Notes under the pieces: model-generated
What the model saw: the letters and a program-made list of their open reading frames with translations, nothing else
Told to the model about the DNA's origin: nothing
Databases searched by the model: none
Assembly (NCBI GenBank): GCA_050740195.1
Contig: JBOICR010000189.1
Coordinates: 1-47,079 of the forward strand
DNA length: 47,079 nucleotides
Reading direction: 5' to 3'
Source: Nevskiaceae bacterium
GTDB lineage: Bacteria; Pseudomonadota; Gammaproteobacteria; Nevskiales; Nevskiaceae
Translations under genes and position numbers: made by a program
Shown: piece by piece, positions 1,754-47,079 of the stretch
Numbering within the stretch: position 1 is the first letter of the stretch
Layout: each line of letters starts with the position of its first letter

Positions 1754-1772
1754 TGCAAGTGATTGATTTCTA

Positions 1773-3645: not shown

Positions 3646-3650
3646 AGAAC

Positions 3651-4478: not shown

Positions 4479-4482
4479 GCCA

Positions 4483-4596
4483 GAGTCGTTCCATACCGCA
4501 GCAGAAGCGTTGCAGCAACCGGATATTGCCGGTGATGCCGTAGTAGGCATAATGATCGCGTAGCTTCCGCTCCAGGTCGGCGCGCTGCTCGCACAC
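4483..4596 (-). pseudogene. reverse-transcriptase (group II intron-like) C-terminal fragment
   Basis: The peptide QRADLERKLRDHYAYYGITGNIRLLQRFCCGMERLW resembles the (K/R)LRGHY(A/G)YYG(I/V)(T/P)GN.R.L..F....R.W block of bacterial group II intron-like RTs (from memory). Only ~38 codons are recognisable, and there is no RT palm domain upstream. Confidence 0.4.
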
Positions 4597-4611
4597 CGGC
4601 AGGTGGTGGAA

Positions 4612-4801
4612 ATGAGAAAGTTACGTGAGATCCTCGGGCTCAAATATGAGGCCAAGCTTCCGCACCGGTGATTGGCCGGGCGTGCGGCATTGGGGCGGGG
4701 ACTGTCTCGACCCTAGCTAACGCGGAGCGGTGCGCGCCGCGCTGCCGGGACTCCCGCAGGAGCACGGCGGGCGGGGAGTACGCGGCCGGTGCTTCCCCCA
4801 G
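4612..4801 (+). mobile_element. IS21-family istA 5' relic, at least two frameshifts
   Basis: Three consecutive pieces lie in three frames: MRKLREILGLKYEAKLPHR* (4612-4671), VIGRACGIGAGTVSTLANAE, and RAALPGLPQEHGGRGVRGRCFPQ (to 4801). They are collinear with the IS21-family IstA N-terminus as I recall it (MRKIREVLRL..E.GLS.R.IAR.CG.S..TV..YL.RA..AGLSWPLP......LE.RLFP). It lies antisense to the 3' tail of the RND gene. Confidence 0.45.
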
Positions 4802-7800
4802 CACTGGCACGCGACCGGCGGAAGCGCGCCGGCGGCGGGCGATCCATTCCTCGAAGTCGCGCACGTAGCTGAAGAGCACGGGCATGAAAACAAGGCTCAG
4901 CACGGTGGACGAAATCAATCCGCCGATCACGGCGAGGGCCATGGGCGCGCGGAAAGCGGGGTCGAGGCCGAGGCTCATCGCGGTCGGCAGCATGCCCGCA
5001 GCCATCGCGAACGAGGTCATCACGATTGGGCGTGCACGTACCCGGCAGGCGAGCAGAATCGCCTCGTTGCGCGGCACGCCCTCGCGCATCCGTTCCAGGA
5101 TGTAGTCCACGATCAGGATCGAGTTCTTGTCCGCGATGCCCATCAGCATGAGGATGCCGATCATGGCGGGCAGCCCCAACTCGCTGTGCGTGAGGAACAG
5201 CAGCGCAAAGGCGCCGCCGATGGAGAGCGGCAGCGCTGCCATGCGCGTGAGCGGCTGCAGCCAGTCCTTGTACAGCAGCACCTGGATCGCATAGACCAGC
5301 AGCAGGCCAGCGCCCAGTGCCTTGAGGAAGTTCGCCATCAGCTCGGCCATGAACTCGGCGTCTTCCGTGTTCAACACCTGCACGGTCTTCGGCAGGCCTT
5401 GCATGGAAGGCAGGGCGTAGATCTGCTCGAGTGCGGTGCCGAGCGCGATCCCGTTCAAGTTAGCCTCGAGCTTGATGCGCCGCTGCCGGTCGTAGCGCTC
5501 GATCGTCGTCGGGCCCATGCCGAAATGGATCGTCGCGACGGCCGACAGGGACACGCTGGTGCCGGCCGGCGTCGGCAGCTTCAAGTTCTCGAGCACTCCC
5601 AGGTCGCGCCCAACCGGCGGCAGGCGCACGCGGATCGGGATCTGCCGATTGCGGTCGTTGAACTGTGCCAGGCGCGCGTCGTTGTCGCCGACGGTGGAGA
5701 TGTTCACGGCATTGCCAATCTGCTGGGCGGTAATACCGAGCCGCGCGGCCTTGACCGAATCCACCGCCAGCGTGATCTCGGGCTGCTTTTGGCCCGCGCT
5801 CGTGCCGACGCTGCTCAGGCCCGCGAGGCCGCGCATCTCGCGCTCGATCGCCTCGGCGCTGCGCGTCAGCGCCTCGGTGTCCTCGCTGACCAGCGCGATG
5901 GAGATGTCTTTTTCTCCCACCGCGTTGTCGAAGGTGATGCGCACATCCGGCAAGGCCGCGAGCGTGGGTAGCATCGTGTTGCCGAATTGGCGTTCATCGA
6001 GATGCCGCTGTTTCGGCGGCACCAGCGTCGCCAGCACGCGCGAGCGGTTGACGCCGCCGCTGACCTGGCCCGTCGTCGTCAGCACGTTGCTGACCTCGGG
6101 GCGCGCTTTGAGCAGTGCCGCGACCTGCTGGGCCTTCACATCCGTCTCCTCCAGCGTGCTGCCCTGCGGCAGCTCCAGCGTGAGGCTCGACAGCGAGAAG
6201 TCCTGGTAGGGCATGAAGCCGCTGGGCAGCAGGGGAACGAGCGCGAAGGACAGCACCACCGTCGCGGCGGCGATCGCCAGCGTCTTGCCCCGATGCCGCA
6301 GCGTCCAATCCACCAGGCGCTGATAGCGTTGCATCCAGCGACCATCGCGCTCGGCCGTCGGCGGCACGGGTCGTAGCAGCTTGGCAGCGAGCATTGGCGT
6401 CAGCAGCCGCGCGACAAGCAGCGAGAAGAAGGCCGCGATGGCCACCGTGAGGCCAAATTGGCGGAAGTACAGCCCCGGCACGCCACCCATCAAGCTCACC
6501 GGGACGAAGACGGCGCAGATCACCAGCGTGGTGGCGATAACGGCCAGGCCGATCTCCTCGGCCGCGTGGATCGCCGCCTCGAACGGGCCCTTGCCGGCAC
6601 GCATGTGGCGATGGATGTTCTCGATCTCAACAATGGCGTCGTCGACTAAGGCGCCAGTAACCAGGGAAATGGCGATGACGCTGACGAAGTTCAGCGTGAA
6701 GCCCAGCCACTGCATGCACATAAAGGTCGGGATGACCGACAGCGGGATGCTCAGGGCTGTGATCAAGGTGGCACGCCAGTCGCGCAGGAAGCCGAATACG
6801 ACCACCAACGTGAGCAGCGCCGCCTCGAACAGCGTGTACAAGGTGGACTTGTAGCCGGTTTCGGTGAGCGTCACCAACGAGAACACCCGGCGGAACTCGA
6901 GATCGCCGCGTTGCTTCGCGATTTCCGCCAGGCGCGCCTGCACTTTCCGCCCGACGGTGACCTCGCTCGCCGCCCGAGTGCGGAAAATGGAAAAAGTGAT
7001 CGCCGGCCGGCCGTCGAGCCGCGTGATCGTGCGTGTCTCGCCGGCGCCGCTCTCGACCGTACCGAGGTCGCTCAGCTTCACTTCGCGGCCGCTAGGCAGC
7101 GCGATGCGCATGTCGCGTAGCTGTTCCAGCGTCGCCGCGCTGCCAACGGTGCGCAGCGCGTACTCGGTGCCTTCCAGCGTCAGGCGGCCGCCCGGGACGT
7201 CGGCGTTCGTTTGCGCTAGCTGGCGGGTTATGTCCGCGGCGGTAATGCCGAGCGCGGCCAGCCGGGCCGCATCTACCGATATCGTGAGCTCGAGGTCGGC
7301 ACCGCCGCTGCGCGCCACGCGCGCGACGCCGCCGATCGCGAGCAGCTCGCGGCTAAGCGTGTCGTCGATGAACCAACTCAACTCCTCCGCGCGCATCTCC
7401 GGCGCCTCGACGCTGTAGATCAGGATCGCCTCGCCGGCCTCCGTCTGGCGCTGGACCAGCGGTTCTTCCACCGCCGCCGGCAAACGGCTGCGGACGGTCG
7501 CGACCGCATTGCGCGCGTCGTTCACGGCACGGTCGATGTCGGTCTCCAGCGTGAACTCGACCGTCGTGAGCGACACGCCTTCCGACACCGTCGAGGTGAT
7601 GTGCCGCACGCCCTGCATCGCCGCCAGCGCCCCTTCGATCTTGCGCGTGATCTGTGTTTCGATCTCGGACGGCAAGGCCCCGGGCTGGTCCAGCTGCACG
7701 GTCACCACCGGCACGAGGACGTTCGGCATGTTGGTGATCGGCAGCTCCGCGTAGGCGATCAGCCCGGCGACGGTGAGCAGCAGGAACAGCACGATGGGCG

Positions 7801-7843
7801 GGATCGGATTGTGGACGGCCCAGGTCGAAACGCTGTACGCCAT
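4640..7843 (-). CDS. RND efflux transporter, inner-membrane permease subunit (HAE1/AcrB-MdtB-like)
   Basis: 1067 aa. The N-terminus MAYSVSTWAVHNPIPPIVLFLLLTVAGLIAYAELPITNMPNV..VTVQLDQPGALPSEIETQITRKIE is typical of RND pumps. Hydrophobic blocks alternate with two large soluble loops. It starts 4 nt after the adaptor gene stop. The last ~61 codons (4640-4824) look non-native (see findings). Confidence 0.9.
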   Translation of the reverse strand: MAYSVSTWAVHNPIPPIVLFLLLTVAGLIAYAELPITNMPNVLVPVVTVQLDQPGALPSEIETQITRKIEGALAAMQGVRHITSTVSEGVSLTTVEFTLETDIDRAVNDARNAVATVRSRLPAAVEEPLVQRQTEAGEAILIYSVEAPEMRAEELSWFIDDTLSRELLAIGGVARVARSGGADLELTISVDAARLAALGITAADITRQLAQTNADVPGGRLTLEGTEYALRTVGSAATLEQLRDMRIALPSGREVKLSDLGTVESGAGETRTITRLDGRPAITFSIFRTRAASEVTVGRKVQARLAEIAKQRGDLEFRRVFSLVTLTETGYKSTLYTLFEAALLTLVVVFGFLRDWRATLITALSIPLSVIPTFMCMQWLGFTLNFVSVIAISLVTGALVDDAIVEIENIHRHMRAGKGPFEAAIHAAEEIGLAVIATTLVICAVFVPVSLMGGVPGLYFRQFGLTVAIAAFFSLLVARLLTPMLAAKLLRPVPPTAERDGRWMQRYQRLVDWTLRHRGKTLAIAAATVVLSFALVPLLPSGFMPYQDFSLSSLTLELPQGSTLEETDVKAQQVAALLKARPEVSNVLTTTGQVSGGVNRSRVLATLVPPKQRHLDERQFGNTMLPTLAALPDVRITFDNAVGEKDISIALVSEDTEALTRSAEAIEREMRGLAGLSSVGTSAGQKQPEITLAVDSVKAARLGITAQQIGNAVNISTVGDNDARLAQFNDRNRQIPIRVRLPPVGRDLGVLENLKLPTPAGTSVSLSAVATIHFGMGPTTIERYDRQRRIKLEANLNGIALGTALEQIYALPSMQGLPKTVQVLNTEDAEFMAELMANFLKALGAGLLLVYAIQVLLYKDWLQPLTRMAALPLSIGGAFALLFLTHSELGLPAMIGILMLMGIADKNSILIVDYILERMREGVPRNEAILLACRVRARPIVMTSFAMAAGMLPTAMSLGLDPAFRAPMALAVIGGLISSTVLSLVFMPVLFSYVRDFEEWIARRRRASAGRVPVLGEAPAAYSPPAVLLRESRQRGAHRSALARVETVPAPMPHARPITGAEAWPHI

Positions 7844-7847
7844 GCCG

Positions 7848-8918
7848 CTATTCCTTCACCACGGCGACGAGGTCGCCTTCCTTGAGGAAGGACCCCGCCT
7901 TCGCCACGATGGGCGTGCCGCCCAGTGATTCCTTGACCACCGCGCTGCCGGCCGTACGCATGACGACGGTCACGGGCTTGCGCGCCGCCACGTTTTTAGG
8001 ACCGACCTGCCAGACGTACATGCCCTGCGCGTCCTGCTGCAGCGCCGTGCCCGGCACGACCCAGCCACCCACCTTGGCCACGGTGATGCTGGCCTCGCAG
8101 AAGGCGCCGACCGGCGCCGCGCGCTCGCGCTCGAAGCGGATGCGCACGCCGGTGGCTCGGCTGGTGATGTCGACCAGCGGCATGATCAGCCGCACGCTGC
8201 CGGACTCCGGCGCGCTTTCGCCGGCGACCTTCAGCGTGACCGGCATGGCAGGCTTCAGCCGCTGCACCAAGGCCTCGGGCACGCTGGCTTCCATTTCCAC
8301 CTTGCCGTCCTTCGCGATGCGGAACAGCGGCTCGCTGCCGTTGGTCAGTCCACCGATCGTCGCGGTACGTTCGTAGATGAGCCCGTCCGTCGGCGCGACG
8401 ATCTGCGTCCGGTTGATGTTGAGCTGGGCGTCGCGTAGCCGTGAGCGCGCAACCTCGAAGGCGGCCTGGCGCTGTTGCAGCGACTCCTTGCTGATCACGC
8501 CGGACAACTGCAGCTCCTTGAACCGGGCGTACTCGTCACGCGTGCGGCCGAAATGCGACTGCAAGCTCTGGCTCTGGATGCTCAGGCTCTCGCCGTCGAG
8601 CAGGGCGATCCGCTGTCCTTGCTTGACGTAGTCGCCGGTCTCCGCGTAGACGGCGCGCACCCGCAGGCCGGCGAGTTCCGATATCACCACCACGTTCTCG
8701 CGCGGCACTACGGTGCCGATGACACGGATGTTGTCATCTAGCGTTTTCTGCGCCGCCGCGACGACGCTCACGCTGAGCACCGGCAAGGCCTTGGCTGCCT
8801 GCACCGAGGGCTTGGAGACGCCGCTCACGCCGACCCATGCGCCCATCCCCAGGCCGACCACCACCAATATCATGCCTAACGTGACTGGTCGCTTGCTCAT
8901 AGGGTGCTCCTTGCTCAT
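7848..8918 (-). CDS. RND efflux periplasmic adaptor (membrane fusion protein)
   Basis: 356 aa with an N-terminal TM/signal anchor (VTLGMILVVVGLGMGAWVGV). It has lipoyl/hairpin/beta-barrel signatures: GTVVPRENVVVISELAGLRVRAVYAETGDYVKQGQRIALLD, a coiled-coil stretch, and INRTQIVAPTDGLIYERTATIGG. ATG 8918 overlaps the upstream stop (ATGA). Confidence 0.9.
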   Translation of the reverse strand: MSKEHPMSKRPVTLGMILVVVGLGMGAWVGVSGVSKPSVQAAKALPVLSVSVVAAAQKTLDDNIRVIGTVVPRENVVVISELAGLRVRAVYAETGDYVKQGQRIALLDGESLSIQSQSLQSHFGRTRDEYARFKELQLSGVISKESLQQRQAAFEVARSRLRDAQLNINRTQIVAPTDGLIYERTATIGGLTNGSEPLFRIAKDGKVEMEASVPEALVQRLKPAMPVTLKVAGESAPESGSVRLIMPLVDITSRATGVRIRFERERAAPVGAFCEASITVAKVGGWVVPGTALQQDAQGMYVWQVGPKNVAARKPVTVVMRTAGSAVVKESLGGTPIVAKAGSFLKEGDLVAVVKE

Positions 8919-11224
8919 AGAGTGCTCATCGTTGTGGGGACGTCGATCCGGTGCCGCGTGAGCGCCGAGCGCGCCCGTGAATAGGCCAAATCCTGCAATT
9001 CGGAAAACTTCGCGTCGTAGGCACGCACGATGCCGCGCGGCGACACGAAGTCCTGGCCCGCTTGTTTGTAGAAATACCGCAGCACCTCGAATTCGCTGTC
9101 GCTACCGGACGCCTCGCTCATCAGGTAGTCGATGAATTCGAGCGCCGCGCTCTCGTGCACGAAATTCCAGGTCACCGAGATCGAGTCCTCGACGACCAGA
9201 ACGTCGTGCAGCCAGCCGTGCGGGATGTAGATCACCTCGCCGGGACGCACGAAACCGTGGAAGTCCGGTGGCGCGGACAGCATCGTCGGTGTGGGGCGCA
9301 CGTCGACGAAGCCGCCGAACGAGGTGCCGTCCGCGCGCCGCGCGCATAGCTCGTCGGCGCGCTCGGGACGATAGAGCACGACTTCCTTCACGCCGCTGAG
9401 CTGGCACACCACCGCGTCGCTGCAGAATGGGTCGCGGTGCAGCCGCGTGCGTGCGCCGCGCGCCGACACCAGCACGCCGCGATAGGGAAAGGCGTCACGG
9501 ACCGCGTCTGCGATCGGCTTGGCCGGCACGAGCATGCCGCGCTTCGGCATGAACGACGGCATGCGCCAATGCGGGCTCAGGCGGCGGAACGCCTCGTCGC
9601 CCCAGGCGTGGTCCACGTCCTTGAGTTTGTTGTACCAGCGCACGTAGGGGACCTTGTCGCGGTACTCGCCCGGCACGCCGAAATGCTGGTCCAGGTACGC
9701 GGCGAGCGTGGAAACCTCTTGCAGTGCAAACAGCGTGTCGTACACCTGCACCGGCAGGTTGCCGAGGCGGGCGCGGAAATGCTTGGGCGTCCAGCGGTCG
9801 CGGTCGAACGCCAGGTCACGCACGACGACGGGCAGGTTCGTACTCAGGTAGTTCTCGACGAACTCCTTTTCGGTCAGCGCGTCCAGGACCTCCAACGGCT
9901 TGGTATGGCTATTCCCACCTGGAGCGCGCGCCGGCACCGGCAGTTTTTTATCCAGCGCGACCGCGCTGCCGAGGTGCAGCTCCACCGCTGCGGCGATGAC
10001 GGCGAGGCCACGCTCGAGCACTTCGCGCTCGATGGTCAGCGCGGGCATGATCTTCAGCACCTGCCCGCGCGCGCCGCAGCTTTCGATGACCAGGTTGTTC
10101 TCGAAGCACAGGGTTATAACCGCGGCCGTATCGTGCTCGGAATCGAACTCGATGCCCTGCATCAAGCCCAGGCCGCGCGTGCCGCGGATGCGCGCCGGGT
10201 GCCGGCGGGCGATGGCCTCGATGGCGTGCCGGATGACCGCCTCCTTCGCGCGGAGTTCGTCTTCCATCCTGGCGCCGCTCCAGTAGCGCTGAAGCACCTC
10301 GACGGCCGCCACGAAGGCGAGGTTGTTGCCGCGGAAGGTGCCGTTGTCCTCGCCCGGCGACCACATGTCGAGGTCAGGGCGGATCAGCAGCAGCGCCATC
10401 GGGAAGCCCATGCCGCCGATGGATTTCGACAGGCAGACCATGTCTGGCTCGATGCTCGCGCGTTCGAAACTGAAGAATCGGCCGCTGCGGCCGCAACCCG
10501 CTTGGATGTCGTCGACGACGAGCGGGATCTCAAATTCCCGCAGCAGCGCACGCAGGCTGCGCAGCCATTCGACGGAGGCGACGTTGAGCCCACCCTCGCC
10601 CTGAATCGTCTCCAGGATCACCGCCGCCGGCAGGTCGACGCCCGAACTCCCGTCCTCGAGCAGCTTGCGCAGCAGCGCCACCGTATCCACGCCCTCGCCC
10701 AGATAGCCGTCATACGGCAGCCGCGTGACGGCGCCGTAGGCGACCGCCTGCCTGTGATACCGGTTGGCCGTCAGGTTCAAGGACACGCCGGTCATGCCGT
10801 GGAAGGCGTTGGTGAACGCGATGACGTTCTGCCGGCCGGTGACCTTGCGCGCCAGCTTGATCGCCGACTCCACGACGCTGGTGCCCGTGGGACTGGTGAA
10901 CTGCAGCTTGTAGTTGAGGCCGCGCGGCAGCAGGATCAGCTTCTGGAACGCCTCGATGAAGTTCTTCTTCGCCCTCGAGTGCAGGTCCAGGCTCATCATG
11001 ATGCCGTCGGCGCCGATGTAATCCAGCACCGCGCGCTTGGCGACGTCGTTGTTGTGCCCGTAGTTCAGGGCGCCCGCGCCGCACAGGAAATCGATGTAGG
11101 CCTCGCCGTCGTCGTCGTAGAGATGACTGCCCTTGGCCCTGGAGAACAGCACCGGGAATCCCCGACAGTAGGAACGGGCTTCCGATTCGTGTCTTTCGAA
11201 GGTCGCGAGTTTGTTCGAGCTCAT
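8915..11224 (-). CDS. fusion protein: diaminobutyrate--2-oxoglutarate aminotransferase (EctB/PvdH/Dat-like) + JmjC/cupin Fe(II)/2OG-type oxygenase domain
   Basis: 769 aa, single frame. See the two domain entries below. Confidence 0.85.
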   Translation of the reverse strand: MSSNKLATFERHESEARSYCRGFPVLFSRAKGSHLYDDDGEAYIDFLCGAGALNYGHNNDVAKRAVLDYIGADGIMMSLDLHSRAKKNFIEAFQKLILLPRGLNYKLQFTSPTGTSVVESAIKLARKVTGRQNVIAFTNAFHGMTGVSLNLTANRYHRQAVAYGAVTRLPYDGYLGEGVDTVALLRKLLEDGSSGVDLPAAVILETIQGEGGLNVASVEWLRSLRALLREFEIPLVVDDIQAGCGRSGRFFSFERASIEPDMVCLSKSIGGMGFPMALLLIRPDLDMWSPGEDNGTFRGNNLAFVAAVEVLQRYWSGARMEDELRAKEAVIRHAIEAIARRHPARIRGTRGLGLMQGIEFDSEHDTAAVITLCFENNLVIESCGARGQVLKIMPALTIEREVLERGLAVIAAAVELHLGSAVALDKKLPVPARAPGGNSHTKPLEVLDALTEKEFVENYLSTNLPVVVRDLAFDRDRWTPKHFRARLGNLPVQVYDTLFALQEVSTLAAYLDQHFGVPGEYRDKVPYVRWYNKLKDVDHAWGDEAFRRLSPHWRMPSFMPKRGMLVPAKPIADAVRDAFPYRGVLVSARGARTRLHRDPFCSDAVVCQLSGVKEVVLYRPERADELCARRADGTSFGGFVDVRPTPTMLSAPPDFHGFVRPGEVIYIPHGWLHDVLVVEDSISVTWNFVHESAALEFIDYLMSEASGSDSEFEVLRYFYKQAGQDFVSPRGIVRAYDAKFSELQDLAYSRARSALTRHRIDVPTTMSTL
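9080..9898 (-). other. domain: JmjC / cupin-8-like oxygenase (aa ~443-715)
   Basis: The facial-triad candidates are TRLHRDPF (HxD) and IYIPHGWLHDV (distal His, compare the (Y/F)IPxGWWHxV consensus). It is preceded by the linker AVALDKKLPVPARAPGGNSHTKP. Confidence 0.7.
9965..11224 (-). other. domain: class-III PLP aminotransferase, DABA-transaminase type (aa 1-420)
   Basis: FERHESEARSYCRGFPVLF, LNYGHNN, FTSPTGTSVVESAIKLARKVTGR, ILETIQGEGGLN, VVDDIQAGCGRSGRFFSFE, PLP-Lys context CLSKSIGGMGFPMA, GEDNGTFRGNN. These are collinear with EctB/PvdH-type enzymes as I know them. Confidence 0.85.
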
Positions 11225-11273
11225 GGCTTGCCCTGTAATTGATGTCGGTTGTGTGAATACGCTGAGGCCGTGG

Positions 11274-12344
11274 TCACCACTTGAACCGCAGGCGCGCGAA
11301 TACGAGCGTGAACACGCACCACCCGCCGAGAACGACGATCTCGGCGTATAGCTTCGTGATGTTGTGGAATCCGACCGAGCCGAACAGCAACTCGCGCATC
11401 GCGGTGTTGAGCTGCGTCAGCGGCATCACGCGCGTGACGGTCTGCAGCCATTCGGGGAAGGCGCTCACCGAGAAGAACACGCCGCCGAGGAGGATGAGCG
11501 GCATCTGCACGAAGTTCACGATGCCGTTGAATGCAGTCACCGACGGACTGGCGGTGGCGAGTACCAGACCCAGGCCGAGGAAGGACACGCAGCCCAGCGT
11601 GATGACGACCAGCAGCAGCGGGTAGTTGATGTCGGCCGGTATGCCGAACGCCAGCACGCCGATCAGCATCAGCGCCATCGCGATGCTGTAGCACACCAGC
11701 AAGCGCGAGAAGAACAGGCCGGCCAGGAATGGCAGCGGCGAGGCGTCGATGGTCTTGATGTTCTTGAACAAGCCGTGATCGCGCTCCTCGATCAGCACGC
11801 CGCCGAAGCCGTTCAGGCCGACGATCAGCAAGGTCATGCCGATGAGTCCGGGCAGCAGCGTGACGAGATAAGAGGTGTAGCGGTTGGTCGGCAACTCGTG
11901 CAGCTGTGCCGGCGCCGCTTCGGCGGCGCGCAGCGACTCGTCGACGATCGCGCGAAGAGCCGTGTTCTCGACCTGGTTCTCGGCCAGCGAATTGGCGTAC
12001 AGCTCCCCCACGAAACCGCCCTTGGCCTCCGGCGCGGCGCGCAGCTCCAGGTAGTGCTTGACGTCGTTGTTCATCAGCGCCTGCTGCGCTGATACCTCGG
12101 GCTTGGCATACGGCACCAGCTGCACCAGGGCACGGCCTTGCAGGCGCTGCACGAAGGCTGCGCTGGCATCGGTCGTGGCCAGGTCGGCGTAGGCCACCGC
12201 GATCACCGGCTTGTCGCGCATCTGCATCGGATAGCCGACGCCCAGCAGTAGCAGCACCGGCAAGAAGTAGCAGAAGAACAGCGCCGTCTTGTCCGATTTC
12301 AGCTGCAGCATGCGCAGCTTCATGAATATCCAGCTCTTTTTCAC
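11274..12344 (-). CDS. ABC-2 type exporter permease
   Basis: 356 aa. TM1 (ALFFCYFLPVLLLLGVGY) is followed by a ~130-aa extracytoplasmic loop and then five further hydrophobic helices (..LVTLLPGLIGMTLLIVGLNGFGG.., ..FLAGLFFSRLLVCYSIAMALMLIGVLAF.., ..LLLVVITLGCVSFLGLGLVLA.., ..VNFVQMPLILLGGVFF.., ..IVVLGGWCVFTLVFA). GTG 12344 overlaps the NRPS stop (GTGA). ATG at 12323 is an alternative start. Confidence 0.85.
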   Translation of the reverse strand: MKKSWIFMKLRMLQLKSDKTALFFCYFLPVLLLLGVGYPMQMRDKPVIAVAYADLATTDASAAFVQRLQGRALVQLVPYAKPEVSAQQALMNNDVKHYLELRAAPEAKGGFVGELYANSLAENQVENTALRAIVDESLRAAEAAPAQLHELPTNRYTSYLVTLLPGLIGMTLLIVGLNGFGGVLIEERDHGLFKNIKTIDASPLPFLAGLFFSRLLVCYSIAMALMLIGVLAFGIPADINYPLLLVVITLGCVSFLGLGLVLATASPSVTAFNGIVNFVQMPLILLGGVFFSVSAFPEWLQTVTRVMPLTQLNTAMRELLFGSVGFHNITKLYAEIVVLGGWCVFTLVFARLRFKW

Positions 12345-15300
12345 AATGGCAGCTCCTTGCCCGTGTGCGACAGGAACACGTCTTCCAGCGTCGGGCGGTT
12401 GATGTCAAAGTTCACCACGTCGATGCACGCGGCATGGCTCAACGCGAGCACCTCGCGCAAGGTGTCGGTCACCCGCGGCGTGCGCAGGCGCAGGCAGTCG
12501 GTGCGCTCGTTCCAGTCAGCATCGGTGGCCTCCACGACGCCGTCGAGCATCTCCGGCCGGAACTGGCCGCGGCCGAACTGAAACTCGATCGAGTGGTGCG
12601 CGCCGAGATTCTTGGCCAACTGCAACGGATTGCCCTGCGCGATGACCCTGCCCCGGTCCATCAGCAAGATCTCGTCGCACAGCCGTTCGGCCTCCTCCAT
12701 GTAGTGCGTGGTGAGGATGACGGTCTTGCTAGGGTCCTGTTTCAGGTCCTCGATGAACTCCCAGGTCGAGATGCGGCTGTGCGGATCGAGCGCGGATGTC
12801 GGCTCGTCGAAGAAGATCACGTCCGGGTCCTCCAGCAGCGCGATGGCGATGGACAACCGCTGCTTCTGGCCGCCGGACAGCTCGTCCACCTTGAAGTCGA
12901 GCTTGTCCTTCAGGTCCAGCCGCTCCAGCAGCGAATCCGCCGACCGGCCGCGGCGCTTGCCGCCTACGGCGGCACGCAGTTCCTGGTAGAACTTGAGCAG
13001 CTGCGCCACCGTGAGGAACTGGAAGTAGTTGTTCTGCTGCAGTTGCACCCCAACGTGCGGTTGGATGCGGTGGATCTCGCTGGCCACGTCCATGCCGAGC
13101 AGGCGGATGGACCCGGACGTGATCGGAACGATCCCTTCGATCATGGCCAGCAGCGAGGTCTTGCCGGCGCCGTTGGGGCCGAGGATGCCGAAGCAGCAAC
13201 CCTGGCGCACCGAGAAGCTGACGCCCTTGACGGCTTCGAGATCTCCGTAGCGCTTGCGCACGTCGCGCACTTCCAGGGAGTAGACCGGGGCAGCGACTGA
13301 CAGCGGCGCAGCAGCGGCTCCCGCGGCATCTTCGTGCGCGACGTCGCCGGCCGGCAGCGGTGCGGTTGCGCCGACCTCGCTACCCGCCACGCTGCGCCTC
13401 ACCGCTTCGGAGTCGGCCGCATCGCCGCGGAAGGCGCAGTGCAGCTCCAAGCCCTCGGCGCCGACGGCAGCCTCGAACAGGATGCCGCGAAAGTCTTTCA
13501 GCTTGTCCATCAGGAATCCCCCGTCCGGCGCTGCGGACTGTTGCAGCGCGTCCGCCTGGAAATTGAAGAGCACCTCGCACTCGAGCGGCGGCAGCGTGCC
13601 GTCCCACTCGGAGCCTGCCGCTTGCGCCAAGCCGAGATAGTTGATGCCGAGTCTTTGCAGCAGCTGCGCTCTGGCCGCAAGTCGTTCCAAGGCGGTGTCT
13701 GCATCCACCGCAAAGGGCACCTTGTCCAGGAACAGGCCGACCTGGTCGAACCAGCGCTCGCCGCCCGACTCACGGCCATGGTGGTTGAGCAGCACGCCGT
13801 AGCGCGCGAGCCCGGTGAGCCGCTCGACGCAGCGTTTGAAGCATCGGAACGCCTGCTCCGCGGGCGTGCCGTCGGCGACGTCGAGCGGCAGGTGCAGCTG
13901 CAGGCTTTGCAGCGGGGCCTGGGCGCGGCGCAGCAGCGCATGCTGCGTGGTGTGCATCGTGGCGGCGAGATCGACGCGGGCTATGGCCGTGTTCAGCATC
14001 GCCGCGGCCTGCGCGTCCGGCAGCCGCCACACCGCATCGACATAGCTCCGGTAGTTGCGGCTGAGGCCGCCGGCGGTGCCGCGCAAGTGCTGCTGCAGGC
14101 GCTGCTGCAGCACCGCCGCCGACATGCCGTCCCAGACGAGATGGTCGACGGCCAGCAGCAGCCGGTGCTCGAGATCGCCCAGCGAAACCACCGCGGCGGC
14201 ATAGGCCAGCGGCGTGGTCTTTCTGGCGGCCAGAAGTTCGGCGCCCAGGCGTTTCAGCAGCTCACCGTGCCTCGCAGGATCGTGTGCGCTCAGGTCCACG
14301 GCCGGTATCGAGGCCGCCGCGATCGCGTCGGCCTCCAGCAAGCGCCACTGCGCCGGCGTGTCGTCGGGTGCCGCGCGCAACAGATCCTGCTCGGCGGCAA
14401 CGTCGGCAAACGCCTGTTGCAGCTCCGCCGCGGTGTACCAGCCTTGCAGCGCAACCATGTCGATCCTGTCACGGCTTTGCCAGGCCATCAGGTTGCGCTG
14501 GATCGGGCTGAAACGCAGGGAGGTCTCCACCGGCGCGTTCGCAAGCCGTTGCTGATGGACCTTCAGCTGCGCCCGCAACGCGTCGAACAACGCGGCCTCG
14601 GTCTGCACCGGCGCCAGCGCCGCAATGCCGGCCTCCCCAACCTGCTGCGACAGCGCGGCCAGATCATCGGCGTAGCGCACGAAGTGCGGACGCTGCTGCG
14701 GCTCCACCGTGGCGAGCAGCGTCTGCAGGGTCTTGCGCCGCGCGCTCTCGCTGCGATCGAGCAGCAGGGCGGTGCGCCGCGGGTTGCCGCCCAGCGTGAC
14801 GATCGCATGACGCCAGCCGTCGTCCAGCGGCCAGTCCGCTGCGCCATGCCGCTGCGCATCGATCGCCGCCGCGCAGGCGCTCACGGTGCGCAGCTGGTAT
14901 ACCTCGGTGACGCCGAGACTCATGCCCTGGTCCTTCCACCGGCTCAGCATGCGGATCAGCAACAGCGAGTTGCCGCCCAGATCGAAGTAGCTGTCGCCAC
15001 GACCGACCTGCGGCAGCTGCAGCAATTCCTGCCAGAGCGCGGCGATCGCGCGCTCGGTGTCGCTCTGCGGCGCCTCGTATTCAGCCCGTGCGAACGCGGC
15101 CGAGGTCGGCTCGGGCAAGGCCTTGCGGTCGACCTTGCCGTTGGCATTCAACGGCAAGGCGCCGAGCACGACGATCGCTGCCGGCATCATGTAGTCGGGC
15201 AGCTGCGCACGAAGGTGCGCCTGCAGCGCCTCGGCGCCGACGGGCGCCTCCAGCGTCACATAAGCGACGAGATGGTGATCGCCTGGAGCGCGCTCGCGTG

Positions 15301-31388: not shown

Positions 31389-31668
31389 CCGCGTGGCGTG
31401 CGGTTGTCTCAGCGGTGAGATCCAACTTGGCTTCCAGCAGGTTCACGACGTCGGCGAGCGTGTAGAGATCGCGCTTGCCCGAATCGGGCACGCGGATGCC
31501 GAGGCGCTGTTCGAGTTCGTACCAAATCTCCAGCATCTCGCGGGAGTCGATGCCGAGGTCCCCGCCCAGATAGAAATCCGGGTCGACAGAGTCGTACGTG
31601 AATCCCGTCTTCTTGATGTCGTTGACGACCTGCAGCAGCATGGCCATCGCGTCGTTGCGCTTGCTCAT
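31381..31668 (-). CDS. free-standing acyl carrier protein
   Basis: 95 aa, acidic, with the phosphopantetheine site YLGGDLGIDSREMLEIWYELE. Confidence 0.85.
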   Translation of the reverse strand: MSKRNDAMAMLLQVVNDIKKTGFTYDSVDPDFYLGGDLGIDSREMLEIWYELEQRLGIRVPDSGKRDLYTLADVVNLLEAKLDLTAETTARHADA

Positions 31669-31696
31669 TTCGTAGCCTCCAGTGGTATACCCAACC

Positions 31697-32941: not shown

Positions 32942-32969
32942 GTTGCCCTTCCTTCTGTTCTGGGGAGAT

Positions 32970-33971: not shown

Positions 33972-36900
33972 CAACGACCCTCCCCAACAGCATCCAGCGT
34001 TTTCCAGAACCGTTCACGGCCTTCGGACTTGGTACGCATGGCGAGCGCGGCAGGATTGCGTTCGGGATTCTTCGCCAGCCCCTCCAGCAGCACCTTGAAA
34101 TGATCGAGCACGGTTTCCATCGTGTCGTTCTCCGCGCACGCGGCCTTGTACAGCAGGTCGAGGGTCACGCGGTCCTGATGGATCGTCACGATGAGTTCCA
34201 TCGCGACCCGCGTCTGCGACGCGTATGTCTCCGAGGCGAGCGACCGCTCGGGCCGCAGCGAATCCGCAGGATCCGCCGCCGGCCGCTCGAACACGATCAC
34301 GCTGTCGAAGAGGTTTTCGACGCCGATCCAGCCCTCGATCCGCTGGATCGGGGTGTGCGCGTAGACCCGTTTGCGATCCAACTTGAGCTGCAGCGCCGGC
34401 AGCCAGCCCGAGATGCGCTCGCGCCCCACCGTACAGATGCGCACCGGTACCAGGTTGCGTATGCGCTTGGCGCCGGATCCCGTCGGTTCGCCCGCAACGC
34501 CCGCCAGCGGCGCGAACGCACGCAGAATGCCGAATTGCGCGCAACGCGCCTTGGTGTAGCGATTGACCAGGATTGCCCAGGCCGCGACGATCAGCGTTTC
34601 CACCTCGATGCGGTGCAACTGCGTGCAGCGCTGCAGCGACTCGGCCAGCTCTGCGTCCAGCGTCGCCGACACGCCATAGAGGTGTTGCTCGGCAAGCTTG
34701 TCGCCGGACCCGGCGTGTCCCAGGAGCAGCGCGGGCGCCAGCAGGAAGGTGGAGTCGGCGATATCGTGCAAGTGGTCGAGCCAGTACTGCCGCGCCGACT
34801 CGTCGCCGTCGGCGGTTGTGTCGCCCGCGCGCTGCAGCTCTGCGTGCAGCGACTGGTCGAGCTCCGCGGGGTCGCCACCCGGCTGGAACCAGGTCGGTGC
34901 AGCCTGTGGCGCGTCGCCGACGGACGACGGGATGCCACTGTCGTCTGTGCTGGCCGGCGTGTCCGCTGCCGCGGATGCCTGCGTCGCGAGCGGCGGCATC
35001 GATCCCCCAACGGACAGCCGGATGTCGCATGTCACGTTCTCGAACGGGGCGGAAGGAAAGGACACACGCCGCCGCCCGGCGCCGGCATGGATCCGCTGCC
35101 AGTCGATCGCGCACCCGCGCACCCAGAGCGAGGCGAGCTTGTCCCAGTGCCGCGCTTGCACGAGCGCATCAACGAAGCGCTCCCCCGCATCCCCTGCCAG
35201 CAGCTCCGACAGCGATTCGTCGGCGCGGCCGTGACCCGCGTAGACGCCACCGGCGTCGCCGCGGCCAAGGTACTTTTCGGCCTTCTCCACGAATTCACCC
35301 GTGTCTGCGGCGACGATCGCCAGGCGGTATTCGAAGGCGATGCGCCCAACCTGGCTCGAGTAGGCCAGGTCGGCGAAGCGCGTCGCCGCGGCGTCGTCGC
35401 GTCCGAGCTGTGCGCACACGGATTTCAGGTACATGTGCAGCGCCTGCGTGCTGCGTGCGGACAGCACGACGATGGCGGGCTCGCCCCGGGCTGGCGGCTG
35501 CGGCCGGCCGGGCGCATGCGACTCGACGACGACGAAGGCATTGGAACCGCCCATGCCGAAGGAATTGATGGCGGCCGCGCGCGTGCCGCGCGCATTAGCG
35601 CTCCAATCCTGCGCTTGGCGCGGGAAATGGAACGGTAAGGACTCGCGGTCGAAGGACGAATTCAACGACTTCAGTCCGGCGCAGGGCGCAAGTTTTCCGT
35701 GCCGCATACCGAGCAGGACCTTGATCAGCGAACACACGCCCGACGCCGCTTCCATGTGCCCCAGGTTTGCCTTGGTCCCGATGGCACAGAACTGCCGCGC
35801 CGTCGTGGACTGCCGCAGCGCATTGGCCAGGGCCTTGAGCTCGATCGGGTCACCCAGCTCGGTGCCGGCGCCATGGCTTTCGATATAAGTCAGATCCTCG
35901 ATGCGCAGGCCAGACTCGCGAATGCCGCGCGCCGCGGTCTCCTCGATGACCCGGAGATTGGGCACGTACGGCCCCGCGCCCGTGCCGGAATGGCTGATGC
36001 AGGAGGCGCGCAGCACGCCATGGATCTGGTCGCCGTCCGCGAGCGCGCGCTGCAGCCGCTTGAGCACGACTACGCCCACGCCTTCGCTGGGCACCAGTCC
36101 GTTCGTCCCCTCATCGAAGGTGCGTTCCCGGCCGTCCGGCGACAGCACCTTCATGTCCTCGAGCAGCAGGTACTTGCTCGGATGCAGGCTGAGATTCACA
36201 CCACCGGCCAGCGCCACGTCGCACTCGCCGCCGAGGATCGCCTTGCGCGCCAGGTGCACGGCCGTGAGCGAAGATGCACAGGCCGTCCCCACCATCAGAC
36301 TGGGCCCGCGGAAGTTCAGCAGGAACGAAATGCGGTTGGCGAATTCGCTGGTTACCGAGCCCGGCCCCAAATACTCGCCCCGGCGCTGGTAGAGCTCGGA
36401 CATGATCCAGGTGTGGTCCTCGTTCATCGCTCCGACGTAGACGCCGACGCGCTGCGCGGCGAGAGCGTCCGGCGTGTACGCCGCGTCCTCAAGCGCGCGC
36501 CACGCGCTGCGCAGCAGCACGCGCAGCTGCGGATCCATGCGCTCGGCGTCGGCCTGCGACATGCGGAACAGCGCCGGATCGAACAGAAGGGCGTCGCGCA
36601 GGAAGCCGCCGCGGTCGCAGCGACCGCGGCGCGCGTCGCGCCGTCCCTGCGCCGAGCGCGCGGCCACGACCGACCAGCGCTCCTCGGGAATGGGGACGAG
36701 GCAGTCGCGCCCCGCGAGCACGTTGTCCCAGAACTCCGCCAGGTCGTCGGCCAGCGGGAACTCGCCGGCCATGCCGACGATCGCGACGGCGTCCGTCTCG
36801 GCGGCGACGTCGGAGCGAGGGCGCGCGGCATCGTGCTTGCGCGAACGGGGCAACTCGGCAACGGGTGCGACGACGCTGCTGATCGCGATTGGTGAGACGC

Positions 36901-39900: not shown

Positions 39901-42900
39901 CCACCACGGCCAGGCGCTCCTCCATGGCCTCCCGTCCGACCTGCGACGACCAGGCCAGCGAGCGCAGATCTACCGGCCGGCCGGCCGCCGCACGCTCGGC
40001 CAGGAACGCAAGCACGCGGTCGACGTAGAGCATCAGCCGCTCTTCACTGTCGGCCGACAGCACAAAGACGACAGGTCTACCCGCACCGCCGTCGACGGCT
40101 TGCTGCACGTGCTCCTCCACCAGCACGTGCGCGTTCGACCCTCCGGCACCGAACGAGCTGATGCCGGCGCGCCGCGGCAGCGTGCGTCCCGCGCCGTTCC
40201 AGTCCTCCAGTTGCTGCACGACACGGAACGGCGTGTGTGCGAAATCGATGTTCGGATTCAATGTCGCCGAATGCGGCGACGGCACGATGCGCCCGTGCCG
40301 CAGCTGCAGCAGGATCTTGGTCAGGCCGGCCATTCCCGCGGCCGATTCGAGGTGGCCGATGTTGGTCTTCACCGAGCCGATGCGGCAGGACGAAGTCCTT
40401 GTCGCGTCACCGCGCTGCCCGAGTTCGGCCGCTACGGTCGCAAACGCTTTCGACAACCCAGCGATCTCGATCGGGTCGCCGAGCGACGTGCCCGTGCCAT
40501 GCGCCTCGATGTAGTCGATCGACCCGGGATGCCAGCCGGCGCGGCGCAGCGCGGTGCCGATCACGTTGCTCTGCGCAGTCTGGTTAGGCACGGTGTAGCC
40601 GTTGGTCTTGCCGCCGTGGTTGACCGCGGATGGTTTGATCACGCCATGGATCTGATCCCCATCGGCGATCGCCTGCCGGTAGGGCTTCAGCAGTACCGCG
40701 CCGACACCCTCGCCCGGCACGTAGCCGTCGCCGCCAGCGCCAAAGGCGCGGCAGCGCCCATCGCTGGACAGGAACTGCCCCTGCGCCAGAAGCCGGTACT
40801 TGTTCGGATGAACGATCAGGTTCACGCCGCCGGCGATGGCCATCTCGCAGTCGCCGTTGCGTATCGCCTGGCAGGCGAGATGAATGGCGGTCAGCGACGA
40901 CGAGCACATCGTGTCCAGCGCGAGGCTCGGACCGCTCAGGTTCAGGAAATAGGAGACGCGGTTGGCGATTGAAGAGAACGTCGCGTGCGGCCGGCCGTAC
41001 TGCAGCTGCTCGTCGGAGGCTTCGATCAGCTGGTACTGGCCCCACATCACGCCGACGAAAACGCCGACGCTGCGCCCCTTGAGCGCCGGCCGCGGATAAC
41101 AGGCGTCTTCGAGGCACTCCCAGGCCGTCTGCAGGAACAGACGCTCCTGCGGGTCGATCAATTCCGCCTCGCGCGCGGAGATGTTGAAGAAGCCTGCGTC
41201 GAAGCGGTCGACGTCATCGATGAAGCCGCCCCACTTGGCGTACGACTCGCCCTTCACGCTGCGATCTGGGTTGAAATACGGACGCCAGTCCCAGCGCGAG
41301 GTCGGGATCTCCGTGATGCAGTCCTTGCCCGCGCAGAGGTGGGCCCAGAACTGCTCGACATTGTCGGCGCCCGGATAGCGGCCGCTCAGGCCGACGATGG
41401 CGATGTCAGGATCAACCCCCGGCGCGAGCGACCTGCTCGGCGCAAAGCGCATTACGCCCGGCGCGTTGCCCGAGACCATCGTGCGATCGCCAATGGCAGG
41501 CTCCGCGGCACGCGGCGGCGCCGCTGCCTCCGGGCGCGACGCGCGCCACTGCAGTGCGCGCGCCCACTGGGCCGGACTGTCGTGGCGGTACACGGCGTTC
41601 GACGCCACGTCCGCGAATTCCTGCTGCAGGCGCTGTACCAGGCGCGAGTTTGCGATCGGATCGAGCGGCCAGTCCGCCAGTGGCGTCGATGCCGTACAGC
41701 CCGCCGCGGCATCGCCCAGTACCTCGTGCAGACACGCGAGCAGCGTGGCCTGGCGTGCCGCGAAGTCTGCACCATCCGCATCGACGCTCGCCACCGCCTC
41801 GACATGAGCCGCTGCGGGCAGCCCGTGCGCGAGTCCCTGGGCCTGCTCCGGCCAGTTCTCGACGAAATACTCGGCCAGGGTGTGCAGGTCCTGGTGCTCG
41901 TAGAACAGGGTCTTGGGAACGTCGCCGAAGGTCGCCTGCAGGTTTTCGTTGAGCGCCAGGATCATCACCGAATCGATGCCGTAGTTCTCGAGCGGAGCCT
42001 TGGCGTCGATCTGGTCCGGGGGCAGCTTCGTCACGCCCGACAGCAGCTCTGTCAGGTGGCGCGCGACGGCCGCGTGGACGCCGGCCGGCGATGGCGGCGC
42101 CGCGTTGGCAGGCGCCTGCACGGACCGGGGCAGCAGCTGCGTGCCAATACGTTCCGCATGGTTCTCGACCAAGTAGTCGGCGATGCAGTGGAGGTCCTGG
42201 TACTCGAAGAACAAAGTCCTGGGAACCTCTCCATACGTGGCCTGCAGTTGCTCGGTGAGCGTCACGATCATCACCGAGTCGATGCCGTAGTTCTCGAGCG
42301 TGCGCCGCGCGTCGATCTCCACGGCGGGTACCTTCGTCACAGCGGACAGCAGTTCCACCAAATGGGTCAGCGCGGCCGCGTGCAGGCTCTGCGTTGCCGG
42401 GCGCACGCCTGGATCGGCGTGCGCCGTCACCGCAGGCAAGCTGGGTTTCGCGGCCGCCGCCTTGAGCAGCGGCGCACGCATCAGCGCCAATTGCGGTGCC
42501 GCCTGAATCGCGAGACCCTCGATCAGCGCGAGCACGTCGCCGTCCGTGTTGAGCAATGTGACGTCGTAGTGCCAGCGATCAGCGCGCGCGGCAGCGCCGG
42601 CGGATGCCACGGCCCATACGCCGCAGTCGCCCACCACCGGCTGCCGCAACTCCAGGCGCCGCATATGCACGGGCACCCGCAGGCTGGTGTCAAGGTCGAG
42701 TCCACCAACGCCCAGAGCAGTCCGCGCCGCGGCGTCGAGCAGCGGCGGATACAGCAGCCAGGTCCCGGCCACGGCATCGGTCGGCTTCGACGCGACCAGG
42801 CGCGCGTACGCTTCATTCGAATTGTAGTACAGCGCATCGATGACCTGGAAACTGGAACCCAGGTTCAGGCCCATGCGGTCGAACGCCGCCGCGACGTCCA

Positions 42901-47079: not shown

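Follow-up and report, generated by a model that had tools for sequence, protein, structure and literature searches.

Solanimycin, a fungicidal product of Dickeya solani MK10 (PMC9765074), is the closest characterised relative of the biosynthetic gene cluster described here, which combines a trans-acyltransferase (trans-AT) polyketide synthase (PKS), a nonribosomal peptide synthetase (NRPS) and an alpha-oxoamine synthase (AOS). The cluster lies on a stretch of 47,079 nucleotides from a Nevskiaceae bacterium (GenBank assembly GCA_050740195.1, contig JBOICR010000189.1, positions 1 to 47,079 of the forward strand), and the whole of this stretch is referred to as the window. The sol cluster of Dickeya is one transcript by reverse-transcription PCR, solA-D and solF-I are essential, and its carriers, which include Rouxiella badensis DSM 100043 and Erwinia sp. 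ErVv1, show 65-100% DNA identity to the MK10 cluster (PMC9765074). SolA consists of KS-DH-KR-T-KS-DH-T-T-KS-DH-KR-T-KS (KS, ketosynthase; DH, dehydratase; KR, ketoreductase; T, thiolation domain) and an NRPS-like terminal domain of unknown function. SolB belongs to the epimerase/dehydratase family, SolC is a 415-aa "aminotransferase", SolD an acyl carrier protein (ACP) and SolE an acyltransferase-acyl hydrolase (AT-AH), and the best matches named for the cluster were Collimonas arenae LT85_1869-1874 and Lysobacter enzymogenes GLE_2101/2102 (PMC9765074).

Tandem mass spectrometry (MS/MS) placed at the N-terminus of solanimycin a C16 hexaene acyl unit with an amino group and a hydroxyl group, followed by Gly-Dha5 (Dha, dehydroalanine) and an unsolved C-terminal part (PMC10204066, PMC9765074); the latter is reported to contain Val and polyketide carbons without an amide or ester link (PMC10204066). 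In the published route, C-2 is oxidised by the P450 SolI, transamination is carried out by SolC and reduction by SolB; a solB mutant produced a decarboxylated keto-amine and a solF mutant a C14 polyenal, and the authors found no clear predicted substrate for the first adenylation (A) domain of SolF, SolF-A1 (PMC10204066). The second described system is GCF_3 of shipworm symbionts, or 'region 1' of Teredinibacter turnerae T7901, with a trans-AT PKS, one NRPS, modifying enzymes and efflux pumps. Strain Bs08 has extra NRPS genes and the product is so far unisolated; among the biosynthetic gene clusters of shipworm gills none is as widespread as GCF_3, which is co-regulated and, in strain 2052S, quorum-sensing-regulated (PMC2699552, PMC7329324, Robinson 2022 preprint). 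A literature search found no GCF_3 or Lysobacter product named in later publications.

On gene order and protein identity, the window cluster was assigned to a new variant branch of the family with solanimycin, and not to the orphans. The first-pass annotation, made from the letters of the window, had stated that the cluster matches no characterised pathway; this was not supported, as the succession of PKS, short-chain dehydrogenase/reductase (SDR), AOS, ACP and AT-AT reproduces the order and domain architecture of solA-solE. The genes of the cluster are as follows, from the left to the right edge of the window.

4640-7843, minus strand: inner-membrane transporter of the resistance-nodulation-division (RND) type, AcrB/AcrD/AcrF family (Pfam E = 1e-225)
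7848-8918, minus strand: RND membrane-fusion (periplasmic adaptor) protein, MFP (Pfam; NCBIfam RND_mfp match)
8915-11224, minus strand: class-III aminotransferase::Cupin_8 fusion (Pfam, NCBIfam, PDB matches, motif)
11274-12344, minus strand: ABC-2 (DrrB-type) permease (Pfam, NCBIfam)
12341-29473, minus strand, open reading frame (ORF) extending to 29563: NRPS with a C-terminal ABC ATPase (Pfam, domain map, motifs)
29490-31331, minus strand, ORF extending to 31388: AT-AT didomain protein (Pfam, NCBIfam fabD, motifs)
31381-31668, minus strand: free-standing ACP of 95 aa (ORF listing, NCBIfam ACP matches)
31697-32941, minus strand: AOS (NCBIfam, PDB matches, motifs)
32970-33974, minus strand: extended SDR (Pfam, NCBIfam)
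33971 to beyond 47079, minus strand: trans-AT PKS, 5' end cut by the window edge (Pfam, phmmer domain map)

A scan for the AOS in one genome per species returned 37 loci with 55-82% identity, including Lysobacterales, Lysobacter enzymogenes, Xanthomonas, Collimonas, Paraherbaspirillum, Cellvibrio, Gynuella, Erwinia, Rouxiella and Pantoea (loci are numbered L021, L024 and so on where they must be told apart). The order PKS (with a half condensation domain at its end)-SDR-AOS-ACP-AT-AT-NRPS was found in about 28 of the 37 species-level loci. Identity to the Rouxiella and Erwinia sol clusters was 44-72% for SDR, AOS, ACP and AT-AT and 31-70% for parts of the PKS; these 31-72% protein identities suggest that DNA identity of the window to MK10 lies below the 65-100% of the sol carriers. 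Carenaemin of Collimonas arenae was tried as the product of LT85_1869-1874 and rejected, as it maps to the cpl locus LT85_RS01660-01720, which is of the polyunsaturated fatty acid synthase (PUFA) type.

The window and the sol cluster share the SolA domain order from the first KR onward (the first KS-DH of the window PKS lies outside the sequence), SolB-SolC-SolD-SolE directly after the PKS in that order, an NRPS that opens with an A domain of the same unassignable code, a single-strand operon and signs of horizontal transfer. They differ in the downstream half. Where the sol cluster encodes SolF with a Gly module and monooxygenase insert, SolG with an iterative Ser module and SolH with Val and a thioesterase (TE), none of which is in the window, the window has one 5.7-kaa NRPS of the layout A-T-E-C-A-T-E-C-A-T-C-A-T-C* (E, epimerization; C, condensation domain). 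SolI (P450), SolJ, SolK and the MATE exporter SolL are also absent from the window, which in turn, unlike the solanimycin cluster, has two E domains, a 2,4-diaminobutyrate (Dab) module, a Dab transaminase::cupin fusion, an NRPS-fused ABC ATPase and an RND pair. The first-pass annotation had made its claim of novelty depend on a lack of high gene-for-gene similarity to any characterised cluster; such similarity was found for only about half of the genes, those for the NRPS, for tailoring and for export not being sol-like. That the pathway is a true orphan, unrelated to anything characterised or described, is highly improbable. Orphan status would fit the lack of a known compound in the Dab-type branch and of sol counterparts for the NRPS, tailoring and export genes, but at the family level it is refuted by the solA-solE correspondence and the shared A-domain code; the published GCF_3/region 1 descriptions and more than 200 AOS homologues with E values of 1e-80 or better also speak against it.

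Ten intact minus-strand genes, spanning 4640 to the right window edge, were obtained from the ORF map and the Pfam and NCBIfam assignments, as annotated at first, and each of the nine junctions claimed was reproduced on the coding strand, with 16-17 nt between the AT-AT and NRPS genes for the claimed 17 nt. The PKS stop overlaps the ATG of the SDR gene (TGATG, 33971), and two gaps of 28 nt follow, one with GGAAGGG and the next with GGAGG. The gap between the ACP and AT-AT genes is about 50 nt if the AT-AT gene begins at MSMTSVWVFPGQGSQ, the likely start being the ATG at 31331. The NRPS stop is overlapped by the GTG start of the permease gene (GTGA), the permease and aminotransferase genes are 49 nt apart, the stop of the aminotransferase::cupin gene is overlapped by the ATG of the MFP gene (ATGA), and 4 nt separate the MFP and RND transporter genes. 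Shine-Dalgarno-like sequences were readable in several of the intergenic gaps. The overlapping or short junctions support a single trans-AT PKS/NRPS/AOS cluster whose genes share one orientation and are coupled tightly or translationally. Within positions 1-13000, terminator-like sites occurred at chance level (8 found, 8.4 expected), and promoter-like sites (4 found, 1.7 expected) were taken as uninformative.

Both large frames, one of 5740 aa and one of more than 4368 aa, run without interruption, and about 42 kb of open coding sequence is present. Catalytic residues were found in the KS, DH, ACP/peptidyl carrier protein (PCP), C/E, AT1, AOS and cupin domains. The cut at the window edge was confirmed, the PKS frame running without a stop to base 47077, and the cluster is intact and complete except for the PKS 5' end. 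Pfam scans of the window gave no match to TE and P450 families, a six-frame regular-expression search of the window no MbtH signature and the ORFs scanned no regulator-type domain, and no HMGS-type ORF was evident among the window ORFs of at least 150 aa; the earlier statement that the window has no TE, MbtH, HMGS cassette or regulator thus stands. An inactive relic, or two unrelated clusters adjoining by chance, has next to no probability. The G+C content that differs from the flank, the lack of a regulator or outer-membrane factor gene in the window and the degenerate third tandem ACP would suit such an origin, but the roughly 42 kb of uninterrupted frames with intact catalytic motifs and the PKS-to-NRPS synteny kept across several bacterial orders argue otherwise, and all sol core genes are required for one product in Dickeya (PMC9765074).

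The visible 4368 aa of the PKS have the domain order (KR structural subdomain)-KR-ACP-KS-DH-ACP-ACP-(degenerate ACP)-KS-DH-KR-ACP-KS-(C-terminal lobe of a condensation domain). In alignment, all three KS domains retain Cys/His/His and both DH domains retain His and Asp; an initial regular-expression hint that KS3 was a non-elongating KS0 was withdrawn, as its Cys/His/His is kept. Acyl_transf_1 had no match in the 4368-aa PKS, and a separate 632-aa protein carries two AT domains; the PKS counts as trans-AT because no AT is integrated and a discrete AT-AT is encoded in the cluster. The last KS is followed by about 500 aa, of which the final 250 match the C-terminal lobe of a condensation domain only (hhalign 98% against the window's own C/E domains, profile positions 242-463). 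This confirmed the earlier observation that no ACP follows the last KS, a half C domain standing there instead. A split condensation domain, with the N-terminal 230 aa of the NRPS as the N-lobe complementing the PKS half, was tried and rejected (hhalign 2.5%, nothing significant in Pfam). The third ACP-like repeat after the tandem ACP pair (41408-41866, minus strand; PKS aa 1738-1890) reaches the Pfam PP-binding cutoff and is probably inactive, because Asp-Pro replaces Asp-Ser where the phosphopantetheine attachment site should be. Full-length PKS homologues have 5293 aa in Teredinibacter haidensis and 5358 aa in SolA, and about 925-990 aa of the window PKS, with KS-DH, would be expected beyond base 47079.

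Partial PKS homologues were also met in another context. Two fragments of 1249 aa (L047:484-5226 and L048:368-5110), about 70% identical to the KR-ACP-KS part of the window PKS, end in a stop and are directly followed by a LuxR-type gene (Autoind_bind and GerE domains), in surroundings unlike those of the full clusters. Among the homologues listed for a 1200-aa PKS query, none was longer than about 2100 aa, although the same collection contains products of 5000-6900 aa; the best partial match listed (P0132) is a truncated PKS beside a LuxR gene in other surroundings.

The four genes after the PKS form a cassette. The SDR is a member of the NAD-dependent epimerase/dehydratase family, HpnA- and OleD-like (Pfam, NCBIfam), and 57-58% identical to proteins of the Rouxiella and Erwinia sol clusters; it is the homologue of SolB, with predicted 3-keto reductase activity. 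The AOS belongs to the BioF/KBL/SPT superfamily, with its pyridoxal phosphate (PLP) lysine in STCSKA and a DDAHG motif. Its NCBIfam scores fell below the equivalog cutoffs for serine palmitoyltransferase (SPT, NF047600; 277.6 vs 640 bits), bioF (294 vs 426 bits) and KBL (283 vs 460 bits), and the nearest solved structures were 7POA/8S1Y (BioF/KBL), 3A2B (SPT) and 1FC4 (KBL). Identity was 71% to Dickeya SolC and 70-73% to the sol-carrying Rouxiella and Erwinia strains, with 72-73% for Erwinia sp. ErVv1 and Rouxiella chamberiensis; it reached 81% for the Collimonas arenae and L. enzymogenes proteins; many of the more than 200 homologues at the E value given above were on contigs of sol-like loci. 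From these family assignments, SolC-type proteins are classed as alpha-oxoamine synthases and not as ordinary transaminases.

The free-standing ACP, a SolD homologue (44-73% identical in relatives), has an intact GIDS serine and is proposed as the partner of the last KS and the carrier for the AOS substrate. In the AT-AT, a SolE homologue, two Acyl_transf_1 stretches (Pfam) and a fabD match (NCBIfam) were found. AT1 is FabD-like, with GHSLG and the conserved Arg. AT2 has GYSLG and a Gln in place of this Arg, in keeping with acyl hydrolysis, the function proposed for SolE-AT2. As in the KBL/threonine-dehydrogenase and SPT/3-ketosphinganine-reductase pairs, a PLP-dependent AOS occurs together with an extended SDR that depends on NAD(P), and a dedicated ACP accompanies them, which suggests a vicinal amino-alcohol product. 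Unlike those pairs, the window cassette forms part of a PKS/NRPS operon, with a polyenoyl-ACP as the presumed acyl donor; the bacterial serine palmitoyltransferase/sphingolipid cassette differs further in that the window AOS does not reach the SPT equivalog score.

In ORF residues, the NRPS consists of an N-terminal domain (31-262), A1-T (263-813), E (836-1266), C-A2-T (1313-2331), E (2354-2789), C-A3-T (2854-3846), C-A4-T (3868-4892), a C-like domain (4893-5400) and a DrrA-type ATPase (5440-5740). The N-terminal domain of about 230 aa is conserved in the Dab-type relatives with an AAWH..LHWLRY motif; it had no Pfam match, was not C-like by hhalign and was undetected by tblastn in sol loci. 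All four A domains have the usual length, and the NRPS lacks a TE. Both E domains of the earlier annotation were upheld by HHLIVDTVS or HHMVVDVVSW (HHxxxDxxS(W/H)) and EGHGRE...TVGWFT-type motifs, and the carrier domains upstream of both carry GGDS. The terminal C domain was also found to be real and is divergent, with 26 bits in Pfam (below the 30.6 cutoff) and an hhalign probability of 95.9% (E = 5.5e-9) against the window's own C/E domains; it has DHLVWDG, part of a DHxxxDGxS motif that does not vary across seven homologues. The in-frame fusion of the ABC ATPase was supported by Walker A GPNGAGKT, the signature LSGGQ, Walker B FFDEPT and an NCBIfam drrA match; the ATPase is the last ~300 residues (12341-13246 in the DNA).

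Specificity codes were extracted by alignment to the PheA segment of GrsA, and as a control this segment returned its own code, DAWTIAAICK. The codes of the four A domains of the NRPS are as follows.

A1: DAAALAAILK
A2: DVWLMGGSFK
A3: DAGALAGILK
A4: DIWEMTADDK

The code DA[A/G]A[L/M]A[A/G]I[L/M]K was that of the first A domain in about 17 of 21 loci with a readable first A domain; the ~17 include the enterobacterial sol clusters (DAGALAGIMK in L021, L024 and L028). This SolF-A1-type code is used twice in the window NRPS, in A1 and A3, which are 39% identical overall, yet have 8 of 10 code positions in common; A3 is 56-67% identical to SolF-A1, against 35-40% for A1. Both codes keep Asp235 and Lys517, and the other positions are mostly Ala, Gly or aliphatic, which suggests as substrate an alpha-amino acid whose side chain is large and hydrophobic. 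The A2 code is predicted to be of the aliphatic type. The A4 code is presumably that for Dab, although literature confirmation was not found; a DIWE[L/M]TA..K code co-occurs with an EctB-type transaminase in all six relatives in which the NRPS tail was read. No mention of the Dab code or of the DA[A/G]ALA..K code was found in the literature searched (full text and one supplement). The domain order predicts the sequence D-X1, D-X2, L-X3, L-Dab.

The same domains allow a reversed topology, in which a decarboxylative AOS/SDR/ACP set of the SPT and 3-ketosphinganine reductase type makes a free sphingoid-like amino alcohol and the terminal C-like domain releases the peptide with that amine; the polyketide would then be amide-bound at the C-terminus, with ordinary large amino acids as the substrates of A1 and A3. 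Such an arrangement agrees with AOS scores for SPT that almost equal those for BioF/KBL, with the ACP gene adjoining the AOS gene, as is the case at bacterial SPT loci, and with an NRPS that has no TE and a terminal C-like domain whose catalytic His is conserved. C-C bond formation of this kind could also be reflected in the Val-polyketide part of solanimycin, and the decarboxylated keto-amine of the solB mutant points the same way (PMC10204066). The topology is nevertheless judged unlikely: MS/MS puts the amino-hydroxy polyene at the N-terminus of solanimycin, the NRPS begins with A-T and no starter C domain, which fits a free N-terminal amine on residue 1, and the special A code accompanies the cassette in ~17/21 loci, for which a dedicated substrate is the simplest explanation.

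The Dab-aminotransferase::JmjC fusion of the first-pass annotation was supported, and with it a Dab-supply enzyme and two exporters in the cluster. Residues 1-430 are a diaminobutyrate-2-oxoglutarate transaminase that passes the NCBIfam EctB equivalog cutoff (616 vs 552 bits), and residues ~440-769 are a Cupin_8/JmjC domain, a putative 2-oxoglutarate/Fe(II) oxygenase with HxD...H retained and PDB matches to JMJD6 and FIH. Only three other transaminase::cupin fusions were found among the matches listed from a search of 5.8 billion proteins; the two are separate adjacent genes in a Lysobacterales metagenome-assembled genome (MAG; L042) and in T. turnerae. The DrrA ATPase is fused to the NRPS in the window, L038-L043 and L046 and is a separate gene in Cellvibrio mixtus (L044), and the DrrB-type permease holds the same position in every Dab-type relative examined. 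The NRPS::ABC-ATPase fusion is not known to have been discussed in the literature, though the T7901 genome, published in 2009, contains it. An outer-membrane factor (OEP) gene follows the RND gene in L038 and L039 and is absent in the window.

The downstream half of the cluster recurs in Teredinibacter, Cellvibrio and Lysobacterales. Several traits of this Dab-type branch were found in the window, namely the giant NRPS with the last code DIWE[L/M]TA..K followed by a divergent C domain with DHxxxDGxS, the DrrA-type ATPase and DrrB-type permease after the NRPS, the EctB-type transaminase and the Cupin_8 domain that occurs in many members. The closest downstream relatives were metagenome contigs (L038-L041; 71-86% identity), which keep the NRPS::ATPase, permease, transaminase::cupin, MFP and RND genes; the fused ATPase, permease, transaminase, cupin, MFP and RND are all present in the Lysobacterales MAG. 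Over the whole cluster, Lysobacterales, Lysobacter enzymogenes, Collimonas and Paraherbaspirillum together with L038-L041 are the closest relatives (AOS 80-82%, PKS parts 51-74%, A1 64-68%); they differ in NRPSs of 5713-6883 aa with partly other codes (Ser-type or Asn-like at A2 or A3), and their products are unreported.

Fused ATPase, permease and transaminase were found in T. turnerae T7901 (L043) and T. haidensis, and the cupin also in T. turnerae. In T. haidensis the AOS cassette and the transaminase belong to one cluster because a single NRPS gene of 6820 aa joins them. The Teredinibacter clusters share with the window the PKS (5293 aa), SDR, AOS, ACP, AT-AT, a giant NRPS with Dab module, divergent C domain and fused DrrA ATPase, the DrrB permease, the Dab transaminase and, in T. 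turnerae, the Cupin_8 gene, at identities of 30-75%. They differ in an NRPS of 6813-6820 aa ending Dab-Dab, the lack of an RND/MFP pair, separate transaminase and cupin genes, and a conserved gene of about 460 aa and a TonB-dependent receptor homologue. The Teredinibacter loci (L043, L045, L046) were matched to GCF_3 by description, which they fit, and strain 2753L has AOS homologues.

Two further gene types were observed in the marine relatives. An MMPL-type transporter gene and a DUF1329/TP_0789-like gene lie between the AT-AT and NRPS genes of T. haidensis (L045:13475-17000); the MMPL module is a third kind of export system in the family, beside ABC and RND. In the marine (Cellvibrionales) versions, a TonB-dependent receptor gene stands after the Dab transaminase (L044:11394-13466, L043:12438-14480 and L046:11807-13864), with 60-69% identity among the three and a Pfam match on record for the Cellvibrio copy only. 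This gene hints at re-uptake of the product in the marine versions; the window has no such gene.

A metallophore or other re-imported compound, in place of an antifungal toxin, would agree with this receptor, which follows the Dab transaminase in Cellvibrio and has 60-63% homologues in both Teredinibacter species, and with Dab and hydroxylated residues being common in siderophores. Such a product is very unlikely here, as the window has two efflux systems and no receptor gene, Pfam scans of the window gave no catechol, hydroxamate or thiazoline-forming domains, and the characterised relative is fungicidal.

Taken together, the cluster is likely a horizontally acquired member of the solanimycin/GCF_3 superfamily that works with an N-terminal AOS-derived polyene unit, and its predicted product is a polyene amino-hydroxy-acyl tetrapeptide. 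In the proposed mechanism, AT1 of the AT-AT would supply malonyl units to the SolA-like PKS, whose KS-DH-KR modules, probably acting iteratively, would give a conjugated polyenoyl thioester, as judged from homology to SolA and its C14-C16 hexaene. The ACP-less last KS would work with the free-standing ACP. The AOS would then join an amino acid to the polyenoyl thioester through a C-C bond and the SDR would reduce the 3-ketone; the enzyme families are established by the matches above, and the order of the two steps is the presumed one. The resulting vicinal amino-alcohol unit would resemble the amino-hydroxy polyene at the solanimycin N-terminus and may enter the NRPS through the family-specific A domain with its Ala/Gly-lined pocket.

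The NRPS would build D-X1, D-X2, X3 (the special code again) and Dab. Dab would be supplied by the fused EctB domain and may be hydroxylated by the attached JmjC-type oxygenase, for which Dab or a Dab residue is the likeliest substrate, since the oxygenase and EctB form one protein here and are encoded side by side elsewhere. As there is no TE, the divergent terminal C-like domain would release the chain by amide formation or cyclisation, and export would proceed by the DrrAB-type system, with its ATPase within the NRPS, and the RND/MFP pair, whose outer-membrane partner is not encoded in the window. A P450 was found neither in the window nor in those portions of the Dab-type relatives that were sequenced, yet SDR, AOS, ACP and the special A domain are kept; this favours AOS chemistry over a P450-plus-transaminase route.

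Several points weigh against this scheme. No product is known from Dab-type members and the solanimycin structure is incomplete. The Dab assignment of A4 draws on its code and on co-occurrence, and the substrates of A1, A2 and A3 are not assignable from their codes. The PKS 5' end and anything upstream lie outside the window, and the Teredinibacter locus is very likely GCF_3/region 1, by description and not by coordinates. In Dickeya, labelled glycine leaves the two extra carbons unlabelled, and the solF mutant gave the C14 aldehyde and no free amino acid (Murphy et al. 2023, PMC10204066). Both results speak against the simplest case, namely glycine as the AOS substrate followed by re-activation of the free acid by A1.

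A bolder proposal, which we hold to be rather doubtful, is that SDR/AOS/ACP and the Ala/Gly-lined A domain form a portable and so far unrecognised route, with no P450 or transaminase, by which alpha-oxoamine-synthase chemistry turns the polyenoyl-ACP of a trans-AT PKS into a polyketide-derived 2-amino-3-hydroxy acid that is re-activated by the NRPS and used at positions 1 and 3. The product would be a bis-polyene, D,D-configured tetrapeptide ending in (hydroxy-)Dab, made on an NRPS tethered to its exporter. If true, this would revise the published solanimycin pathway and predict the shipworm GCF_3 chemotype.

The gene inventory of the first-pass annotation was right for the ten operon genes and overlooked two genes to their left, which are as follows.

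3651-4478, plus strand: HetI/Sfp-type 4'-phosphopantetheinyl transferase, PPTase (Pfam ACPS and AASDHPPT_N; NCBIfam)
1447-1, minus strand: glnE, 5' half (GlnE matches, 482 codons)

The PPTase gene is convergent with the operon, 161 bp from the RND stop, in a region with a G+C content of about 0.59, like the flank. It matched NCBIfam 4PPT_HetI (E = 3e-72, 242.5 bits, below the 370 cutoff), and no homologue was found beside the cluster in the sequenced parts of the related loci compared; it probably primes the nine predicted active carrier domains. The glnE frame (glutamine synthetase adenylyltransferase) is uninterrupted over its N-terminal half, exits the left window edge and marks the chromosomal core adjoining the cluster; the encoded part is 43-51% identical to GlnE of Gammaproteobacteria. 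The G+C content rises from about 0.60 in the flank to 0.65-0.70 in the cluster (0.68 overall), and on this contrast and the adjacent glnE the cluster was probably acquired horizontally. The region 1450-3040 (~1.6 kb, G+C ~0.60) had no convincing ORF, tRNA or Rfam match, and no Pfam match in ten small ORFs; it could be degraded DNA at the island boundary. Next to it, 3043-3645 (plus strand) encodes a protein of 200 aa; its N-terminus resembles a signal peptide, and a repeat within it contains GRYCDN (GWPGRYCDNVRLLCE and CTGRYCDNISIECG). It matched nothing in Pfam or NCBIfam, and no homologue of it turned up in the related loci compared.

The features that stand out in this cluster are the double family-specific A domain, the NRPS::ABC-ATPase fusion, the rare EctB::JmjC fusion and the comparative argument for AOS chemistry. 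The sequence evidence ties together solanimycin of potato pathogens, very likely GCF_3 of shipworms, and the silent clusters of the biocontrol genera Lysobacter and Collimonas. The conserved SDR, AOS, ACP and AT-AT with the special A domain suggest how the common amino-hydroxy polyene unit arises. The NRPS and ABC ATPase, mostly fused and separate in Cellvibrio, offer a natural comparison for the coupling of synthesis and export, as do the Dab transaminase and JmjC domain, fused here and adjacent elsewhere, for the coupling of precursor supply and tailoring. In practical terms, the cluster may be a source of a new antifungal that resembles solanimycin and carries another peptide part.

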